A stretch of DNA of 64,000 bases from Candidatus Levyibacteriota bacterium (lineage in GTDB: Bacteria; Patescibacteriota; Microgenomatia; Levybacterales; UBA12049): positions 20,803 through 84,802 of the forward strand of contig JAJDCG010000001.1 in the NCBI GenBank assembly GCA_029260965.1, written 5' to 3'. The notes beneath the pieces were generated by a model. The model saw only the letters and a list, made by a program, of their open reading frames with translations, ran no database searches and was not told the origin of the DNA. Every line of letters starts with the position of its first letter. Positions within the stretch are counted from its first letter, which is position 1. Below are positions 295-39,091 of this stretch, in pieces. The translations under genes were made by a program, and so were the position numbers.

Positions 295-876
295 ATGCGG
301 AAAATGAAAACAAACATCAAATTTAAAAGCCCCGAGGAATACAAAACTAACGACATATTGATTTCCAGAGAAATAATCAAGAAAAAAATTGAAGAAATGG
401 CAAAACAAATCTCCAAGGAATATAAAAATAACCACATACTGATAATTGGCGTTCTAAAGGGTGCATTTGTACTTGTTGCAGACCTTGTTCAAGCTCTCCA
501 TAATCTAGGCTTTGATAATTTCTCGGTCGAATTCGTGACTGTTTCAAGCTATAAAGGCACGGTCTCAACAGGTATACCTCTAATAACTGACAATATGGAG
601 GAAAACCCCAGAGACGAACACGTGCTTCTAGTTGATGATATTGTAGAAACAGCACTTACACTCTCAACCATTAAAAAAATAATCACAAATCAAAAAGCAA
701 AAAGTGTGAAATCGTTTGTATTACTCTCAAAGCCAACCAGCACAAAACCAGCTCTTAAGCCTGATTTCGTGGGATTTGAAATTCCCGACGTCTGGGTTGA
801 GGGATATGGAATGGATACAAACCAAATAGGACGAGGCAATCCTGATATTATAATTGGACCATCCAGTCAATCTTAA
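295..876 (+). CDS. hpt: Hypoxanthine-guanine phosphoribosyltransferase
   Basis: PRTase PRPP-binding motif VLLVDDIVETALTL and C-terminal VGFEIPDVWVEGYGMD typical of HGPRT; TATAAT-like -10 at 288-293. Confidence 0.85.
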   Translation: MRKMKTNIKFKSPEEYKTNDILISREIIKKKIEEMAKQISKEYKNNHILIIGVLKGAFVLVADLVQALHNLGFDNFSVEFVTVSSYKGTVSTGIPLITDNMEENPRDEHVLLVDDIVETALTLSTIKKIITNQKAKSVKSFVLLSKPTSTKPALKPDFVGFEIPDVWVEGYGMDTNQIGRGNPDIIIGPSSQS

Positions 877-1277
877 AAAGATAATATCGCAACTCCAGCA
901 ATAGTCAAAACAATTCCCAATATCTTCATCGCACCCAAGGGTTCATGAAGAAAAATCCAAGAAAGTAACACTACTACAACAATATAGCTACTTGAAATCG
1001 CTGAGGCCAGTCCAACCGGCAGTTTGGTAAGAGAAAAAACAAATAACAGTGATCCTGCAGCCATCAAAAGTCCTGTAAAAATTCCAAGTGGTAACCCTTC
1101 TGTTGGAAATTTCAAATTCTTCTCGGCCAAATACATGGCTGGAAGCGTAATAATTAGCATGCCAAAAGCCATCAAAACATTTATCTGATAGGCACTAAGC
1201 GACTTCATGGCAAATTTCATCAAAAATGATGCTATTCCCACAAAAAAGACATATCCTGCTAAATATAGATATCCCAT
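873..1277 (-). CDS. Small DMT-superfamily (EamA/ArnE-like) 4-TM membrane protein, last gene of sugar-modification operon
   Basis: 134 aa, four hydrophobic helices, 4-bp overlap with upstream epimerase gene; family assignment by topology only. Confidence 0.45.
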   Translation of the reverse strand: MGYLYLAGYVFFVGIASFLMKFAMKSLSAYQINVLMAFGMLIITLPAMYLAEKNLKFPTEGLPLGIFTGLLMAAGSLLFVFSLTKLPVGLASAISSSYIVVVVLLSWIFLHEPLGAMKILGIVLTIAGVAILSF

Positions 1278-1302: not shown

Positions 1303-2277
1303 CTAGCGACTCAACGCTTTTTTAATTTCCACCAAACCTTCTTCAAAATCAACAATTACTTTATATCCCAACTCTTTTTTTATTTTTGCAATATTATATC
1401 GACGCGACTGAGCAGTAAATGCCCAGGTAAATCTGGTAAGAGGAGGATGCGATTTTAGAAATAAAACCTTCCATACAAGCTCAACTACTACCGCTAATCC
1501 ATAGGCAAAGCCTGATGAAATATTCTTTTTGGGAATTTTTAAATTATATATCTTCAGAAGCCTTATCAGATACTCACGAAATGTTAATCCTGCCTCATCT
1601 GTCACATAATAAATTTCTTTATCTTTCCCTTTTTCAAGACTAAGCATAATTGCCTCTGTTACATTCTCAACATGTGATGTTTCAAACAGGCTTTTTCCTT
1701 TATCTATCCAGACAAATCCACCTGATCTTATTTTATCAATAAGCGCATTCGTGCCGTTACTTCCAACTCCCCAAATATATGAGGGTCTTATGATGATAAT
1801 TTTTGTATTTGTTTTTTTAGAATTTGAAAGCGCTATTTCTGCTTCCTTTTTTGCTCTACCATAGTTTGAATTGGGATTTTTGGGATATAGGTATGATTCA
1901 TCAATATCAATTAATGGCTTTTTGTCCTGAAGCGCTGCTTCAGAGCTGATATAAATAAATCTTTTTACCTTTTGCCTAGACGCACTCTCAAACAATTTCT
2001 TGCTCGCAAGAGTTATTGCTTTGTAATAAAAATCCCACGGTCCCCAAAAAGTAACAGGTGCAGCAAGATGAATCACCACATCAACTCCTGAAAGCTGGTC
2101 TTTCCAGTTGTCAATATCATCAAGTGAGCCCTCAACTATTTTAATCCCCTTTTTCTCAAGATCTGAACTTTTATCAGGACTTCTTGAGAGAATACTCACA
2201 ACATGTTTTTCTTCCAGCAAACGCTTAAGCACATGCCTTCCCAAAAATCCTGTTGCTCCAGTTACAAACACTTTCAT
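1303..2277 (-). CDS. NAD-dependent epimerase/dehydratase (extended SDR family)
   Basis: N-terminal Rossmann motif MKVFVTGATGFLGRHV, YxxxK-type SDR architecture, length about 320 aa. Confidence 0.8.
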   Translation of the reverse strand: MKVFVTGATGFLGRHVLKRLLEEKHVVSILSRSPDKSSDLEKKGIKIVEGSLDDIDNWKDQLSGVDVVIHLAAPVTFWGPWDFYYKAITLASKKLFESASRQKVKRFIYISSEAALQDKKPLIDIDESYLYPKNPNSNYGRAKKEAEIALSNSKKTNTKIIIIRPSYIWGVGSNGTNALIDKIRSGGFVWIDKGKSLFETSHVENVTEAIMLSLEKGKDKEIYYVTDEAGLTFREYLIRLLKIYNLKIPKKNISSGFAYGLAVVVELVWKVLFLKSHPPLTRFTWAFTAQSRRYNIAKIKKELGYKVIVDFEEGLVEIKKALSR

Positions 2278-2777
2278 GTCTTATTTATTTTATTATTTAC
2301 AAACTCGCTTATTTGTTTTTTAAATCTCGCAGAAGAAAATTTCCCTGCTTGCTTGATACAATTTTCCTTAAAAATGTCATTCTGAGCAGAGAAAAGAATC
2401 TCAAATCTTTTTATAGCCTCATTCAGCGCCTCTGAAGTGTTCTTATCAAAGAACAATCCAGTCGCAGACCCTGAACTCTTCAAAGGGTCAATTACCGTTT
2501 CTTTTACTCCACCCGAATGATAAGCAATAACTGGCGTCCCACACATCATCGCCTCAACTGGTGTAATCCCAAAATCCTCATCAACGGATGCAAAAACAAA
2601 CGCCCTAGCATTTGTCATCAGTTCTAATTTCTGCTCATCAGTTACCTCACCCAAGAATTCTATATTTTCTTGCTTGTTGCTTTTTGCTTTTTGCTTTAAC
2701 TCCTCCTCAAATCCCGCAAATCCTTTCCCAAATATTTTAAGTGGTAATTTATTTTCATTAAAAGCTTTCACTATCAC
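2274..2777 (-). CDS. Glycosyltransferase family 1/4 C-terminal half (fragment; out of frame with N-terminal half at 2813-3454)
   Basis: GT-B C-terminal signature region EVTDEQKLELMTNARAFVFASVDEDFGITPVEAMMCGTPVIAYHSGG; start lies 35 nt downstream of the stop of the N-terminal fragment and in a different frame. Confidence 0.7.
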   Translation of the reverse strand: MIVKAFNENKLPLKIFGKGFAGFEEELKQKAKSNKQENIEFLGEVTDEQKLELMTNARAFVFASVDEDFGITPVEAMMCGTPVIAYHSGGVKETVIDPLKSSGSATGLFFDKNTSEALNEAIKRFEILFSAQNDIFKENCIKQAGKFSSARFKKQISEFVNNKINKT

Positions 2778-2812
2778 ATCAACACCTTTTGCTCTAGCCA
2801 GTCTCCCACCTG

Positions 2813-3454
2813 TCAGGTAATAATTACTGGATCTTGGATCTTGGATCTTGGATCTTGGATTTCAACTGGCGGATATATAACTGTCGCATCTTGCTGATAA
2901 AATTTCTTGATCCTGCCTTTTACTTCTTCAGAATTGGCAATAAAATAATCAACGTTTTTTGAAGCTAAAAAATCTACTTTTCTCAAAAAATAATTTGCAA
3001 TTTCTGCAAAAAAAGCAAAAAACTTGTTTTTTTTCCAGTCTCTGGCTGTCTTATATCCATATAAATATCTCGGAGGTGTATGGGTGTAGCAAATCAGAAT
3101 TGGATCTTTGATCTTTGATCTTTGATCTTTGAATCTGTTCCCAACCCAGTTGGGAAAATATGCTCCAGTTTGCGAGACAATCACCACGTCATAGCCTGAC
3201 AAATCAAGGCTGGAGAAAGCAAAAGGAGATAAAAGACGAAGAGGTGAAATCAATTTCTGGCGAAATGGAATCTTGTCCAGAAATGTCGTCTTTATTTTAT
3301 ATTTCTCAAACCTTTTTCTATGCGGACCAAGATAGTCTGGTGCATAAATAGATGTATAGACAGTAGCATCAGGATAAATCTGAAGAAGTGTCTCAAGCAC
3401 TCGCTCTGCCCCACCGTATTCTTTTATGTAATCATGAACTATCGCAACTTTCAT
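2813..3454 (-). CDS. Glycosyltransferase family 4 N-terminal half; reading frame terminates inside a (GGATCTT)n heptanucleotide tract
   Basis: N-terminal GT4 domain (MKVAIVHDYIKEYGGAERV...); C-terminal residues IQDPRSKIQDPVIIT-stop are encoded by the tandem repeat at 2829-2860; second in-frame heptad tract at 3102-3135 encodes KDQRSKIKDP. Confidence 0.7.
   Translation of the reverse strand: MKVAIVHDYIKEYGGAERVLETLLQIYPDATVYTSIYAPDYLGPHRKRFEKYKIKTTFLDKIPFRQKLISPLRLLSPFAFSSLDLSGYDVVIVSQTGAYFPNWVGNRFKDQRSKIKDPILICYTHTPPRYLYGYKTARDWKKNKFFAFFAEIANYFLRKVDFLASKNVDYFIANSEEVKGRIKKFYQQDATVIYPPVEIQDPRSKIQDPVIIT
2829..2860. repeat. Tandem heptanucleotide repeat (GGATCTT)x4.5, GATC every 7 bp; terminates GT N-fragment
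   Basis: Direct reading: ggatcttggatcttggatcttggatcttggat; unit length 7 is not a multiple of 3, so copy-number change shifts frame. Confidence 0.9.
3102..3135. repeat. Tandem heptanucleotide repeat (GATCTTT)x4 plus degenerate unit, in-frame inside GT N-fragment
   Basis: Direct reading: ggatctttgatctttgatctttgatctttgaatc. Confidence 0.85.
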
Positions 3455-3753: not shown

Positions 3754-3990
3754 ATGGAACAAATAAAACAAGAAGTAAGAATCAATTGCTCTAAAAATAC
3801 TGACTACATTACTACACTGGCAGAATTCTGGGATAAATTTTATAAAAAACTTCTCAATGCTGAAAAAACAAGACTTAGATCTACTAGTCCTGCTATAAAA
3901 CCCGATTCAACACTTGAACAAAGAACAGCGGAGGGAAATATTGCAGCAGGTTTAAGAGAACAAATAGAACAAGCTAGCTTCAATGGCTAA
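3754..3990 (+). CDS. Small hypothetical protein (78 aa)
   Basis: ORF follows previous small gene with 9-nt gap; no recognisable motif. Confidence 0.3.
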   Translation: MEQIKQEVRINCSKNTDYITTLAEFWDKFYKKLLNAEKTRLRSTSPAIKPDSTLEQRTAEGNIAAGLREQIEQASFNG

Positions 3991-4988
3991 ACATCAAATC
4001 CAAGCTGTTCTCCATCACTCTTGCTGTCTTCTTTTTCTTCTTCAGGTTCTGATTTTTTATTCAAACCAAACACATCATCAAACCTCTTTGTCAGGCTTTT
4101 AAATCCCTGGTCCACAAACTCTTTATGAAGCGCCGTAGGGTCAAAATCCAAGATCTTGCATTTCTCAGGATCAAATTGGATTGGTACGTCTGTTACGATT
4201 TGCGCCAGCTTCTTGGCAAGTGCTGCCTGCTCAGCATCAGTTGCGAGTTTAAGACCTATTTTCTCAGGCAGATTCCCTACATGTTTGTAAAGATTCTCGA
4301 AAGTGCCATATTCTTGTATGAGCTTGGCTGCAGTCTTGGGCCCAATGCCCGCCACCCCTGGATAACCATCAGACGGGTCTCCAATCAGTGCTTTGTAATC
4401 AACAAACTGAGAAGGAGTAACACCATACTTCTCCTCAACTGACTTTTCATCCATCAAAAGCGTTTTAGTAATACCAGTTATCGGCATAAGGATCTTTACA
4501 TGCCCATTTACAAGCTGCAGCAAATCCCGATCACCTGTTACTATGATAATTTCCAATTTCAAATTTTTTTTCTTTTTTTTATTTGAAATTTGAGATTTGG
4601 AATTGGTATTATTGGTATTTATTCTGGCCGCTTGCGAAGCAATGGTGCCAAGGAGGTCATCTGCCTCATATCCATCCAGTTCAAATACCGCGACTTTCAG
4701 CTTTTCCAAAAAGTCATGAACAAGTGCGATTTGAGGCACAAAATCCTCAGGCAAATCAGGTCTACCCTGTTGGTATCCCGCAAACATAGTTTGTCTAAAA
4801 GTAGGCTTGGGTCTATCAAAACAAACCGCCAGATACTCTGGTTTTTGATCCTGGATAATAAGAAGAAGCATAGAGAAAAAGCCATAAACAGCATTTATTA
4901 CCATTCCCTGATTATTGGTAAGAGGTGGATATGCATGATAAGCCCTGTGCAGAATGGCATTCCCATCTATCAAAATAAGTCTACTCAC
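3987..4988 (-). CDS. Stand-alone 5'-3' exonuclease (FEN-like / PolA N-terminal domain homolog) with low-complexity K/N-rich insertion
   Basis: N-terminus MSRLILIDGNAILHRAYHA, LGTIASQA, IVTGDRDLLQL, helix-hairpin-helix GVAGIGPKTAAKLI are hallmark 5'-3' exo motifs; no polymerase domain follows; insertion NTNNTNSKSQISNKKKKKNLK is encoded by homopolymer-rich DNA at about 4545-4640. Confidence 0.8.
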   Translation of the reverse strand: MSRLILIDGNAILHRAYHAYPPLTNNQGMVINAVYGFFSMLLLIIQDQKPEYLAVCFDRPKPTFRQTMFAGYQQGRPDLPEDFVPQIALVHDFLEKLKVAVFELDGYEADDLLGTIASQAARINTNNTNSKSQISNKKKKKNLKLEIIIVTGDRDLLQLVNGHVKILMPITGITKTLLMDEKSVEEKYGVTPSQFVDYKALIGDPSDGYPGVAGIGPKTAAKLIQEYGTFENLYKHVGNLPEKIGLKLATDAEQAALAKKLAQIVTDVPIQFDPEKCKILDFDPTALHKEFVDQGFKSLTKRFDDVFGLNKKSEPEEEKEDSKSDGEQLGFDV

Positions 4989-9465: not shown

Positions 9466-10767
9466 TCATGAAAGAGCGAGCACTTCTCTCTTAAACTGTT
9501 CCCCACGGTCTTTGTAGTTAGCAAACATGCCAAAACTCACACACCCAGGTGTTAAAATCACCACATCGCCAGAACGAGCAACTTTTGCTGCAGCTGAAAC
9601 AACAGTTTTCATATCTGTCGCATCCTCAATAATCAAGATCTTGGATCTTGGATCTTGAATCTTGGATTTGATCTCGTGCCACTCATCCCCAATACCAATA
9701 ATTGCTTTTATGTTTTTTGCCTCTCTTACCACTCTTCCAAGATCACTAAAATCATTTTTTCTTACTCCTGATCCTCCAAGGATTAATATTTCAGGAGAAT
9801 TAAACGCCTCAATTGCAGCAATTGCCGTTTCAGGCGTGGTTGAAAATGAATCATCATAATACTTCACGCCCCCTATCTCACGAACCAACTCAAGCCTATG
9901 CTCCAAACCTTTAAATGATTTCAAAACTGAAATTATATTTTTTGTCGAAACCCCCACAGTATTTGCAGCCATAACAGCAGCACAAACATTCTCATAATTA
10001 TGCTTTCCAGGAAGTAAGATTTCCTTGGTATCCCCGATCTCATTATCACTACCATTTTTGCGAACAATCACTTTTCCTCCTATTACAAAACAACCATTAT
10101 CAGTCTCCCTCTCACGCGAAACATAGAAAACTTTTCCTTGTGTTTCAATATCAGATTCGTTGCTTGCAGGATAGTCTCTGTTAACTATTGCAAAGTCATC
10201 AGCTGTTTGAAAACGCAAAATGTTTCTCTTTGCATCTATGTATTCTGATAAGTCTTTATGATGATCTAAATGATCTGATGTGATCATGAGAACTACAGCG
10301 ATATGTGGGCTTTTTTTTAGGTCTTTTAACTGAAAACTAGATAGCTCCAGCACAGTCCACGAATGAGTATCTAATTTATCCAAAAAGTTAACTGCAGGCT
10401 CTCCTATATTGCCACCCAGATATGCATCAACTCCTTCTTTTTTTAACATTTCATAGATAAGACTGGATGTTGTACCTTTTCCTTTTGTTCCAGTCACTCC
10501 TATTGCTTTTCCTTTTGCATTACTCAGAAAAATATTTGTTAATGTTGTATATGAGATTTGGATAAGTTCTGATTTCACACCAGGAGATTTTATCGCCAGA
10601 TCATAATCTTTTTGTCTATCCAGATAACCAGCCCCGTCCTTTTGATCAACTATTCCTATCTCTGCATCAGGAACATATTTTTTCAAAAACTTCTCTGCAG
10701 CATGTCCTTCCACTCCATAGCCGACAATTAAAATTTTTTTATTTTTTTTAATATCTTCGATTTTCAT
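9466..10767 (-). CDS. murD: Mur ligase, UDP-N-acetylmuramoyl-L-alanine--D-glutamate ligase-like (MurD or MurD2); carries in-frame heptad-repeat insertion
   Basis: Rossmann N-domain KKILIVGYGVEGHA, Mur ligase P-loop GVTGTKGKGTTSSL, C-terminal Mur ligase domain; in-frame repeat at 9634-9671 encodes KSKIQDPRSKIL. Confidence 0.8.
   Translation of the reverse strand: MKIEDIKKNKKILIVGYGVEGHAAEKFLKKYVPDAEIGIVDQKDGAGYLDRQKDYDLAIKSPGVKSELIQISYTTLTNIFLSNAKGKAIGVTGTKGKGTTSSLIYEMLKKEGVDAYLGGNIGEPAVNFLDKLDTHSWTVLELSSFQLKDLKKSPHIAVVLMITSDHLDHHKDLSEYIDAKRNILRFQTADDFAIVNRDYPASNESDIETQGKVFYVSRERETDNGCFVIGGKVIVRKNGSDNEIGDTKEILLPGKHNYENVCAAVMAANTVGVSTKNIISVLKSFKGLEHRLELVREIGGVKYYDDSFSTTPETAIAAIEAFNSPEILILGGSGVRKNDFSDLGRVVREAKNIKAIIGIGDEWHEIKSKIQDPRSKILIIEDATDMKTVVSAAAKVARSGDVVILTPGCVSFGMFANYKDRGEQFKREVLALS
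9634..9671. repeat. Tandem heptanucleotide repeat (GATCTTG)x3 plus two degenerate units, in-frame inside murD
   Basis: caagatcttggatcttggatcttgaatcttggatttgatc; flanks (aataatNa...ggattt) match the copy at 2820-2866. Confidence 0.85.
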
Positions 10768-18763: not shown

Positions 18764-18768
18764 TTTAG

Positions 18769-18841
18769 TGGGCCAGGGAGGACTCGAACCTCCGACATGG
18801 AGTGTATAAGACGCCCGTTCTAGCCGCTGAACTACTGGCCC
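18769..18841 (-). tRNA. tRNA with apparent anticodon TAT (would read AUA, Ile); C29:U41 mismatch in anticodon stem
   Basis: Acceptor GGGCCAG/CTGGCCC, D-arm GTTC-AGCGGCTA-GAAC, anticodon arm GGCGT-CTTATAC-ACTCC, T-arm GGAGG-TTCGAGT-CCTCC, discriminator A. Confidence 0.6.
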
Positions 18842-21282: not shown

Positions 21283-21768
21283 TTATTCCCCTCCTTTACT
21301 ACCATTCAAAAAAAGTATTTTTTTCCATTGTCTGATGATCTCTTTTGCTCTCCATTTAAGAGATGTTTTGATGCTAGATTTTTTTTCAACTGCAATTGCC
21401 TCAGGGAGGCTTACATTACTACCTGTTACGCTTAAAATTGGTTGACTTTGATTATTTGCATGAACTATGCCCGCATCCTGTGCTTCTCTATCAAGATCCG
21501 GCTTCTCCACATCAGGTGTAGGCGAAATAAACTCTCTCAACTCAGCTGAAATCTCAGGTGCGTGTTCTGTAGGGTCAGCTGGCCTTATATCAGACTTTGA
21601 CTCCAAAGCTTCTGCCGCTACATTTTGTGGCGGAAGTGGGGCATGCTCTTTAGCAGGACCTGATACTGGATTCTCCGGCTCTTCTATTGGTTTTTGGAGC
21701 TGGATCTCTTCGTTTTTTTTAACATCGTCTGATTGCTGATTGCTGATTGCTTGTTGGCTATTATCCAT
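21283..21768 (-). CDS. Hypothetical Pro/Glu-rich protein, immediately upstream of and co-oriented with coupling-protein gene
   Basis: 2-nt spacing to downstream gene; low-complexity P/E/A-rich sequence. Confidence 0.35.
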   Translation of the reverse strand: MDNSQQAISNQQSDDVKKNEEIQLQKPIEEPENPVSGPAKEHAPLPPQNVAAEALESKSDIRPADPTEHAPEISAELREFISPTPDVEKPDLDREAQDAGIVHANNQSQPILSVTGSNVSLPEAIAVEKKSSIKTSLKWRAKEIIRQWKKILFLNGSKGGE

Positions 21769-32258: not shown

Positions 32259-32768
32259 TTAGCTATCTAGCTTATTTTCTATTATTCTTATCTTATCCAC
32301 TCTTCTTGTATGTCTCTCAATCATCGCAATCTCTGCGTTTACGAAAATTTCAACAGCTTTAAAAATATCATCTTCTGTTAAGAACCGTACCCCAAGAGAA
32401 ACCATATTTGCATGATTATGCTCACGAGTCAAACGAAGCATCTCAAATGGATCTGTACTTTTTTTTCCTGTTATATCAATAGCTTGAACAGGAACTGCAG
32501 GTGTATAAAAAAGGGCACATCTGACATTCTTAAATTTATTAGCAACCATCGCCTCACCTTGTCCAGATCCACCAAAAATAATTCCAATACTTTCTGGGTT
32601 TTGAGAAACACCTTCTGCAGCTTTTCCTATAAAATCGGGGTAATCATCATCCAAGTTAAGCTCATAAGCCCCACAATCCTCAACCTCATGCCCTTTATCT
32701 TCAAGAAAATCTTTTACTTTATTTTTGATGTCTAATCCAGTATGATCGGTAGCAATAAAAACCTTCAT
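32259..32768 (-). CDS. rpiB: Ribose-5-phosphate isomerase B
   Basis: MKVFIATDHTGLDIKNKV N-terminus and RpiB/LacAB fold length (169 aa). Confidence 0.8.
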   Translation of the reverse strand: MKVFIATDHTGLDIKNKVKDFLEDKGHEVEDCGAYELNLDDDYPDFIGKAAEGVSQNPESIGIIFGGSGQGEAMVANKFKNVRCALFYTPAVPVQAIDITGKKSTDPFEMLRLTREHNHANMVSLGVRFLTEDDIFKAVEIFVNAEIAMIERHTRRVDKIRIIENKLDS

Positions 32769-32820: not shown

Positions 32821-32855
32821 CAAAGATCCAAGAACAAAAATCCAAGATCCAAACT
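32821..32855. repeat. Degenerate intergenic copy of the GATC heptad repeat family (reverse orientation)
   Basis: Reverse complement reads agtttggatcttggatttttgttcttggatctttg. Confidence 0.6.
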
Positions 32856-33382
32856 TACTGTCCTACTATTACTTCAGCTCCAGTTGTGAGGCTAGCTGAA
32901 ACGCTTCCAGTTACTGTTCCTGATACTTTTTCTTTCAGGTCAGCAAGCAATAGCTCGAGATAATCTTTGCTTTCCTCACTTACGTTTACTGTAATTCCTT
33001 CGTAATCAAAATTATCCGCATTTCCTGTAGTACCTAGTGTGTATCCGAGATCTTCAATTATGTCTGCCATATCTCCTGCAGCTCCCGCTGTTCCAGATCC
33101 ATTGAGTACATCTACTGTTAGCTCTGAACGGTCAAGATCGGGCGCTTCAGTTGGCGTAGCCGTTGGATCTACCACTGGAGCACTGGTTGGTGCTTGTTCA
33201 TTGAGGGGGATTAGTGATACTTCTCCATTTTCACGGCTCTGCCCGAGGAAATAAAGACCAGCAACAATTGCAATAATAACCAGAATTGTCGTAATAATTA
33301 CAACAGGAGCTTTTGATTTTTTGCCTGTGTTCTCAACTTCTGCGTAGTTTGAGTAATCTTGAAATGGACCTTCTTCACTCAT
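32855..33382 (-). CDS. Membrane-anchored protein with LytR_C (cell-envelope attenuator C-terminal) domain
   Basis: N-terminal TM, P/T-rich linker, VDVLNGSGTAGAAGDMADIIEDLGY segment typical of LytR_C. Confidence 0.5.
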   Translation of the reverse strand: MSEEGPFQDYSNYAEVENTGKKSKAPVVIITTILVIIAIVAGLYFLGQSRENGEVSLIPLNEQAPTSAPVVDPTATPTEAPDLDRSELTVDVLNGSGTAGAAGDMADIIEDLGYTLGTTGNADNFDYEGITVNVSEESKDYLELLLADLKEKVSGTVTGSVSASLTTGAEVIVGQ

Positions 33383-38546: not shown

Positions 38547-38682
38547 AAGCTAAATACGAATATCAAAACAATAAATGACAAAAAGTTTTGATATTTGAAA
38601 ATTATTTAGAATTTCGATATTCGTATTTCGAATTTATAAAAATCAACATTCACTTATAGAAATTAAAAATTGATTTTTATTG

Positions 38683-39091
38683 GGGGATGAATTGATTCGA
38701 CGAGAAACGTACCTTAAAAACTGCAAGCCGGCATTGAATCAAAGCCGTAAAACTGATTCAAAAAATAAATGCTAAAGAACGCATTTCAGCTTTGAAAGCT
38801 GAAGCACGAGCAATCGTTGCTGAACTTTCAAGCGGTTTTCAGCCTAACTACGCAGTAGTCTAAGCTCTAAGCCTGTTCATATAAGTCTTTCTCAACGGGA
38901 TTGTATGGGCATAAACACAGTTGGGAAAAAAATAAAAAGTTTGGTTTCACTTTTTATTGAATTTATCAGACCTAGGCTTTAAAATTCCTGTCAATTGGAT
39001 AATTTAAAGTTGAATTTAATAATTGACTATGCTTGTAGACGTTAAAAGATAATTTACTCGGACTCGATGTCACTCATCGACATCTCCACCA
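38683..39091 (+). ncRNA. ssrA: tmRNA (ssrA)
   Basis: 5' GGGGAUGAAUUGAUUCGACG matches conserved tmRNA 5' end; acceptor GGGGAUG pairs with CAUCUCC + ACCA, giving G3:U70 (alanine identity); T-arm UCGAU-GUCACUC-AUCGA; candidate tag ORF ends ...SSGFQPNYAVV-stop at about 38890; directly downstream of smpB. Confidence 0.65.

Follow-up and report, generated by a model that had tools for sequence, protein, structure and literature searches.

A frameshifted glycosyltransferase gene with heptanucleotide tracts in a Levybacteria genome, a candidate phase-variable locus

Phase variation through simple sequence repeats (SSRs) is textbook biology of host-adapted pathogens, and the classical contingency glycosyltransferase (GT) loci are lic2A, lgtC, lgtA and cgtA. 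The bacteria of the candidate phyla radiation (CPR, or Patescibacteria) are ultra-small, largely uncultured and probably episymbiotic, and the biology of their cell surface is difficult to investigate. In the literature we found no report of SSR phase variation in CPR bacteria and no description of heptanucleotide over-representation in them. Here we analyzed a window of 64,000 nt (the whole stretch of DNA under study, positions 1–64000, in which all positions below are counted) from a Candidatus Levyibacteriota bacterium. It carries, on the minus strand, a GT4-family (GT-B fold) glycosyltransferase gene that is frameshifted within a tract of 7-nt repeats. The heptanucleotide precedent is neuO of Escherichia coli K1, a capsule O-acetyltransferase gene on the prophage CUS-3 that undergoes translational phase variation at an (AAGACTC)n tract of 3–53 repeats, 20 being commonest, and is OFF in 66% of genomes (PMC13001214). 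The GT genes for lipooligosaccharide, lipopolysaccharide and capsule in Haemophilus, Neisseria, Campylobacter and Helicobacter offer a further parallel: there the open reading frame (ORF) contains a repeat with a unit not divisible by three, and changes in its length interrupt or restore the frame (PMC2651432).

The kind of switch is thus already known; what stands out is the CPR host, the mid-gene position in a linker, the presence of three tracts in one gene and a phylum-wide heptamer hotspot in the GT gene. As in neuO, the unit is intragenic and 7 nt long, is translated as a 7-aa heptad in all three frames with no stop in any, and would set the ON or OFF state by its number modulo 3 via slipped-strand mispairing; the enzyme, too, probably modifies a cell-surface glycan. 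The neuO tract, however, is long and lies at the 5′ end, whereas the GT tracts have 3–5 units, number three per gene and lie mid-gene, the frameshifting one in the interdomain linker. Also unlike phage-borne, accessory and mostly OFF neuO, the GT gene is conserved, chromosomal and mostly ON, and its product belongs to another enzyme family. The classical GT loci have many-unit tracts of mono-, tetra- or pentanucleotides, measured switching rates and host-adapted pathogens as hosts, unlike the 7-nt unit, the short tract and the uncultured environmental CPR bacterium that we describe. The gene and its tracts (the latter given without strand) are as follows.

2274–3454, minus strand: GT4 (GT-B fold) glycosyltransferase, whole gene, frameshifted in the assembly (ORFs and domain matches)
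2813–3454, minus strand: N-half ORF, 213 aa, N-terminal Rossmann domain, PF13439 (ORF and Pfam)
2274–2861, minus strand: C-half reading frame, PF00534, beginning just upstream of the tract and open as far as the stop
2828–2860: site-B tract, perfect (TGGATCT)x4.7, 33 nt, frameshift site in the interdomain linker
3103–3132: site-A tract, perfect (GATCTTT)x4.3, in frame, FKDQRSKIKDP, in a surface loop
2670–2697: site-C tract, (TTGCTTT)x4 (perfect x3 at 2677–2697), in frame, KQKAKSNKQ

An earlier note on this DNA had described a glycosyltransferase frameshifted inside a heptanucleotide tract, and both the sequence and the ORFs confirmed this. Its (GGATCTT)x4.5 at 2829–2860 is the same array as our site B, the unit of which reads CCAAGAT on the coding strand and gives the heptad KIQDPRS. 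In the N-half frame the tract is translated as EIQDPRSKIQDP, followed by VIIT and a stop, i.e., the TGA at 2815–2813, which lies, as described, directly after the tract (12 nt beyond it); the tail 'DPVIIT*' is the conserved SNYYLTG block read out of frame. In the C-half frame the tract reads NPRSKIQDPRS and runs on into SNYYLTGGRLARAKG, and the C-half homology begins with this block, exactly where the tract ends. The two frames overlap by 49 nt and are both open across the entire tract. The C-half had been said to resume 35 nt later, which proved incorrect: its frame is already open at 2861, immediately beyond the upstream edge of the tract, and 35 nt is the distance to a GTG at 2777. This GTG is the first possible C-half start, and a product from it would miss the invariant YYLTGGRLARAKG block (invariant columns G218, R220, L221, A222, R223 and K225 of the ortholog alignment A1). 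The second in-frame heptad tract of the earlier note was recovered at site A, and we detected a third, site C, that it did not contain. The emphasis it had placed on GATC within the repeat found no support, and the GATC/Dam idea was dropped, as the observed/expected ratio of GATC is 0.90, unremarkable among 4-bp palindromes.

Repair of the frame by whole repeat units was evaluated in silico. Gain of one unit gave a single 395-aa ORF and loss of two units a single 388-aa ORF, while no single ORF resulted from −1, +2 or ±3 units; the claim that gain or loss of units fuses the halves therefore holds for +1 and −2 (modulo 3) and fails for the others. Unrepaired, the sequence has the two GT4 domains in different frames, with the C-half frame matching PF00534 at E = 2e-30, whereas the restored 395-aa ORF matches both PF13439 (E = 1.9e-9) and PF00534 (E = 7e-30). 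Its AlphaFold2 model has a predicted local distance difference test score (pLDDT) of 85 and a predicted template modeling score (pTM) of 0.85, with strands and helices alternating in both halves, and the restored protein is confidently predicted to fold as a complete two-Rossmann-domain GT-B enzyme. In this model site B is a coil (residues 198–213, pLDDT about 60), as is site A (residues 104–118, pLDDT below 50 at 109–114). The C-domain profile matches the C-domain of the WbaZ-1 mannosyltransferase (PDB 2f9f, E = 1e-25), the best structural relative by sequence, and the PF13439 plus PF00534 architecture is that of GT4/GT-B enzymes such as this one. None of the NCBIfam equivalogs reached its cut-off. 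The gene has no second lesion: apart from the frameshift neither half is damaged, and both share 77% identity with the closest ortholog. The N-half is identical to an NCBI protein (P0164) recovered by a search with the N-domain only. No compensating GT paralog was found within the window.

To place this gene among its relatives, we compared the best 120 of thousands of homologs and, from a genome scan that returned 576 loci encoding relatives, fetched the best 80 (L001–L080). The best 120 homologs are all single proteins (362–425 aa, 57–77% identity), the named ones from Levybacteria or Patescibacteria metagenome-assembled genomes (MAGs), and the GT gene is intact in all 80 loci, which are from species-representative genomes. 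Identity of the orthologs to the restored protein, taken along its full length, is 60–77%, and the closest ortholog is in L001, a Ca. Levyibacteriota MAG. The earlier note had proposed a comparison with orthologs, in which two separate genes would have spoken against a switch; the orthologs are single genes. They carry insertions that vary at the positions of the window tracts, i.e., after FPNLV (site A), after VIYPPV within the interdomain linker (site B), and also after EELK (site C) and ETVIDP (site D). A 7-aa periodicity is apparent in many of the insertions (NQESRIK, ISNQQSA, KDQRSKI), which is what a translated heptanucleotide repeat yields, and all four sites (A–D) are coil or low-confidence loops of the AlphaFold2 model. 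The basal length of the site-B linker is 12 aa, and with one unit added the window's linker would be 48 nt, among the two commonest ortholog lengths, which makes a one-unit deletion the most economical history. In L040, L047 and L076, site B holds in-frame insertions like SLSFLRTRESRKKWIPDQVRND, which look like a translated small palindromic (hairpin) repeat element in the linker.

Alleles split like that of the window were sought separately, with an N-domain-only search for short proteins, a biased sample with no denominator. It returned many short N-half proteins, and in the DNA of five candidates the gene was split or damaged at the same linker in every case.

L207: site B perfect (GAATCAA)x3.4, frameshift in the window's phase
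L208: site B (AAAAACA)x3.1, frameshift in the window's phase
L210: site B (GTTCATC)x3.9, frameshift in the opposite phase
L209: site B perfect (AAGTTAC)x4.3 at 2077–2106 of that locus, joined to sequence beyond site C, about 70 codons deleted
L211: no site-B tract, frameshift in the linker

Four other lineages are thus split at the same linker (L207, L208, L210 and L211), with both phases represented. In three of the four the split falls on a heptamer tract, and in silico the predicted unit changes restored full-length ORFs in all three. The deletion in L209, a Roizmanbacteria MAG, is what recombination between two of the gene's own tracts would produce. The N-half of L207 (contig k141_2533513 of sample ERZ27254846) shares its 90% cluster with the C-half and with a Levybacteria MAG protein of full length (365 aa; P0284, OGH16295.1, from Rifle groundwater) that is present on 12 contigs. 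When one GAATCAA unit was added to the L207 gene, its translation was identical to this protein over 365 of 365 residues, indicating that natural ON and OFF alleles one unit apart exist in a sister lineage. The database fragments P0286 and P0166 both terminate with 'EMNQE', exactly within the tract of the L207 lineage, the assembler behavior expected at a polymorphic repeat.

The heptamer tracts of the gene belong to a wider pattern. A scan of the window for perfect tandem repeats (periods 2–12, at least 2.5 copies) found five at period 7 and one otherwise (period 6, 2.5 copies), and three of the five lie inside this 1.2-kb gene; the dominance of period 7 and the grouping in one gene are more than chance. 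In 937 kb from the 80 related Levybacteria/Microgenomates loci, perfect repeats of at least three copies numbered 28 at period 7, 3 at period 5 and 0 at the other periods from 2 to 15. Tandem Repeats Finder (TRF) reported 100 arrays at period 7, 42 at period 14 and 11 at period 21, against 1, 15 and 12 at periods 6, 8 and 9, and no period-7 array in shuffled sequence. With this excess over other periods and over shuffled sequence, the window and its relatives fit the class of genomes rich in long heptanucleotide SSRs (Mrazek 2007). Including the window, there are 162 tracts of the period-7 family, of which 100 (about 60%) are in frame in long ORFs, where they encode 7-aa-periodic loop insertions, and 61 are intergenic or near gene ends; the only frameshift candidate is that of the window. 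Tract density is 0.62 per kb in the GT gene versus 0.10 per kb in the flanks (p = 3e-21), reaches 1.09 per kb in the 150 nt upstream of the GT gene in the relatives, and within the gene the tracts group at positions about 305–350, 570–700 and 735–870. The units differ between genomes, which points to independent origins or rapid turnover. Unit likeness within genomes is genuine but modest (mean distance 1.98 vs 2.41, with 0 of 2,000 permutations reaching the observed value) and could merely mirror base composition.

An excess of heptanucleotide repeats is known from bacterial genomes, with polymerase slippage given as its cause (Mrazek 2007, cited in PMC4692102 and PMC4679880). The other cases, from cyanobacteria, Xanthomonas (GGGAATC) and Beggiatoaceae (TAACTGA), share the period-7 excess and units that are more alike within genomes. 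They are mainly intergenic or in 5′ untranslated regions, in contrast to the in-frame majority in Levybacteria, and the Levybacteria units are A/T-rich, not G-rich. Heptamers just upstream of the gene in the GT relatives recall the 7-bp promoter repeats of hmw1A and hmw2A in H. influenzae, although the window has no upstream tract and the hmw tracts have 13–38 units (PMC2651432). The 21-mer (GGATCTT)x3 occurred in at least 120 metagenome contigs (L081–L200) with GC contents of about 30 to 70%; this repeat is widespread well beyond Levybacteria.

Taken together, slipped-strand ON/OFF variation at this site of the GT family is well supported. For the window itself, the reading that we favor, and consider somewhat better than an even bet, is that one conserved Levybacteria GT4 gene is held OFF by the wrong number of units and could be toggled in a phase-variation-like manner. 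Most likely, a 5.7-copy site-B tract would have lost one 7-bp unit. Translation would then run out of frame over the invariant YYLTGGRLARAKG block to the stop, leaving a 213-aa N-domain fragment and a catalytic C-domain without a usable start. Slipped-strand mispairing at replication would bring back the 395-aa enzyme (+1 unit) or the 388-aa enzyme (−2 units), and since units can be gained and lost by slippage, the locus could toggle ON and OFF as a translational phase-variation (contingency) locus. The proposal of a candidate slipped-strand ON/OFF gene, made already in the earlier note, now draws on the unit length that is not a multiple of three, the in silico rescue, the split alleles and the sister-lineage pair. 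By extension, the window population may be, or may have been, polymorphic at site B, the switching may be frequent and reversible, and it may be useful, e.g., for phage escape or changes in host attachment.

Several observations weigh against such a switch. No second strain or reads of the window species were found that would document polymorphism here. Exact-protein look-ups with the N-half, the neighboring epimerase and exonuclease, and P0164 returned no second strain. A flank-anchored variable-gap pattern had no match in metagenomes, not even to the window's own allele, and its range was 1 nt short of the +1-unit allele. None of the at least 120 contigs with (GGATCTT)x3 was from the window species by blastn, a scan uninformative on strains. 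The site-B tract has only 4.7 units, few beside the usual neuO tract. The orthologous tracts of L044 and L060 are equal in length despite about 25% nucleotide divergence, indicating that not all tracts are visibly unstable, and no pair of closely related species was available for copy-number comparison, none exceeding 82% nucleotide identity in the gene. OFF alleles look uncommon: among the GT genes of the 80 species-representative genomes, 0 of 56 tracts are out of frame, and the unselected flanks give 0 of about 44 coding tracts. Such rarity would be expected under mutation-selection balance just as under adaptive switching. In addition, this GT is a conserved core gene, unlike typical accessory surface-variation genes.

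We ranked neutral pseudogenization at a slippage-prone tract as the main alternative, possible but distinctly less probable than a toggled gene. By this account the heptamers are neutral mutational debris in tolerant loops, and the frameshift is an ordinary loss of function, neutral or mildly deleterious, on the way to a pseudogene and not a switch in use by the organism. The genome-wide excess of period 7, intergenic regions included, the attribution of a similar excess in other bacteria to polymerase slippage (Mrazek 2007, again as cited in PMC4692102 and PMC4679880), the nearly universal in-frame state of the coding tracts and the apparent rarity of OFF alleles all agree with it, as do the outright decay in L209, with its deletion of about 70 codons from the tract, and the frameshift of L211 in the same linker without a heptamer tract. 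Yet the window gene has no further lesion, its halves remain 77% identical to the closest ortholog, and its site-B tract is still perfect. Moreover, in at least four independent populations the allele in the assembly consensus is OFF, one of these populations has an exact one-unit ON counterpart on 12 contigs, and the tract density of the GT gene is about 10 times that of other coding sequence in the flanks, with the upstream region enriched too.

A more far-reaching reading, which we regard as doubtful, is that Levybacteria, perhaps Microgenomates more widely, have a heptamer-specific process that writes genome-specific cassettes, with the GT4 gene as a dedicated multi-tract target. Cassettes would be written repeatedly into tolerant protein loops and promoters, here at three or four coding sites and the 5′ region. 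If true, otherwise identical strains could differ in the ON/OFF state of the enzyme and also in rewritten surface loops. This reading draws on whole-tract replacement between near-identical strains and on a terminal unit shared by tracts of the window, two of which lie outside the GT gene.

9637–9671: in-frame (GATCTTG)x4.4 tract in a Mur ligase gene (9466–10767, minus strand), KSKIQDPRSKI
32821–32852: degenerate GGATCTT-family tract, opposite orientation, in the spacer between a LytR_C-domain gene and rpiB

The tract in the Mur ligase gene shares both its unit family and its heptad peptide with site B of the GT gene, and the degenerate tract lies within the 86-nt spacer from the stop of the LytR_C-domain gene (32855–33382) to the start of rpiB (32259–32768). 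The 11-mer ATCTTGGATTT occurs four times in the window versus 0.11 expected (2852–2862 and 9659–9669 on the plus strand, 32838–32848 and 4144–4154 on the minus strand). Three of the four copies are the ends of GGATCTT-family tracts, where they form a shared degenerate terminal unit, a hint of common origin for these tracts; the fourth is a single copy in a 5′-3′ exonuclease gene. As for tract replacement, P0084, P0122 and P0124 fall in one 90%-identity cluster and are encoded by near-identical genes, with wholly different site-B tracts that are all in frame and wholly different 5′ upstream regions. The GT alleles of L201 (1501–2775), L202 (1204–2472) and L205 (1501–2781) are near-identical along most of their length, the DNA being 100% identical in long runs; the site-B units, by contrast, are AATTCAA-type, AAATCAA/AAGATCA and (CGAATTA)x4, respectively, and the 5′ upstream regions are heptamer-rich and unalignable with each other. 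A 20-nt string shared by the upstream region of L201 and site B of L202 was considered as a sign of cassette exchange and rejected, as unrelated genomes give control matches of 22–24 nt.

We consider it unlikely that the frameshift is an assembly or consensus artefact, the true genome having 5.7 (or 2.7) units and the repeat having been collapsed or one allele of a mixture picked. The source is a metagenome-assembled genome, judging from related records and from the NCBI contig of 549,591 nt that carries P0164, assemblers can be misled by tandem repeats, and assemblies do break at the orthologous tract, as the fragments P0286 and P0166 show. On the other hand, a 33-nt tract would be below typical read and final k-mer lengths, and an error of a whole unit would not be a usual sequencing error. 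Of the same-strand ORF pairs in the 64-kb window that overlap or abut, those checked included no further split gene, despite many homopolymer runs, which argues against a generally error-prone assembly, and like splits occur in four other, independently produced assemblies.

Two-polypeptide GT-B enzymes are known elsewhere, e.g., Alg13/Alg14, and both frames are open over the whole tract, with AAGGTG 5 nt upstream of the GTG at 2777, but expression despite the frameshift, by programmed −1 ribosomal frameshifting, by transcriptional slippage in the tract or as two polypeptides, is highly improbable: programmed frameshifting was rejected, as the CCAAGAT(n) tract lacks a slippery heptamer (X XXY YYZ), and the tract is also free of homopolymer runs, while a functional split enzyme was rejected because the sole C-half start lies beyond the invariant YYLTGGRLARAKG, so that the C-domain would lose its first strand and a conserved loop, and because the best 120 orthologs are all single chains.

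If the gene is toggled as we favor, its ON and OFF alleles, visible in public assemblies, provide a marker readable by sequencing alone, which could expose surface variation in metagenomic time series, for instance phage escape or altered host attachment. Annotation calls for caution as well: heptamer tracts are common in Levybacteria genes, where they cause genuine frameshifts, interrupted gene calls and broken contigs, and pipelines will list the results as partial or separate proteins.

The genes around the GT bear on its role.

1303–2277, minus strand: NAD-dependent epimerase/dehydratase-family gene (short-chain dehydrogenase/reductase, SDR), downstream of the GT
873–1277, minus strand: small membrane protein, last gene of the putative operon
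3987–4988, minus strand: 5′-3′ exonuclease (FEN-like) gene

The SDR gene overlaps the GT stop by 4 nt and is therefore probably co-transcribed with it, and the small membrane protein has weak matches to SMR/ArnE-type transporters, well below the family cut-offs. With these two genes next to it, the GT probably acts on a cell-envelope glycan or glycolipid, and the label 'surface glycan' would follow from the GT family and the operon. Among the 80 loci, the order of GT, SDR gene and small membrane protein is common only to the window and its closest relative, L001. A homolog of the 5′-3′ exonuclease was present in 80 of 80 related loci, upstream of the GT wherever positions were inspected. The exonuclease of the window carries a low-complexity insertion, NTNNTNSKSQISNKKKKKN, that breaks up the match to its N-domain.

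Two further period-7 tracts and a tRNA were observed elsewhere in the window. A perfect (CTGATTG)x3.3 repeat at 21729–21751 lies 17 nt into an ORF of 161 aa (21283–21768; N-terminus MDNSQQAISNQQS) that has no Pfam match; the 5′ part of the coding sequence is where a translational switch classically has its repeat, neuO being an example. A degenerate period-7 tract at 38604–38635 lies just upstream of the tmRNA gene (38683–39091). The tRNA-Ile at 18768–18841 has, according to ARAGORN, the anticodon TAT and is not of the usual lysidine-modified CAT type.

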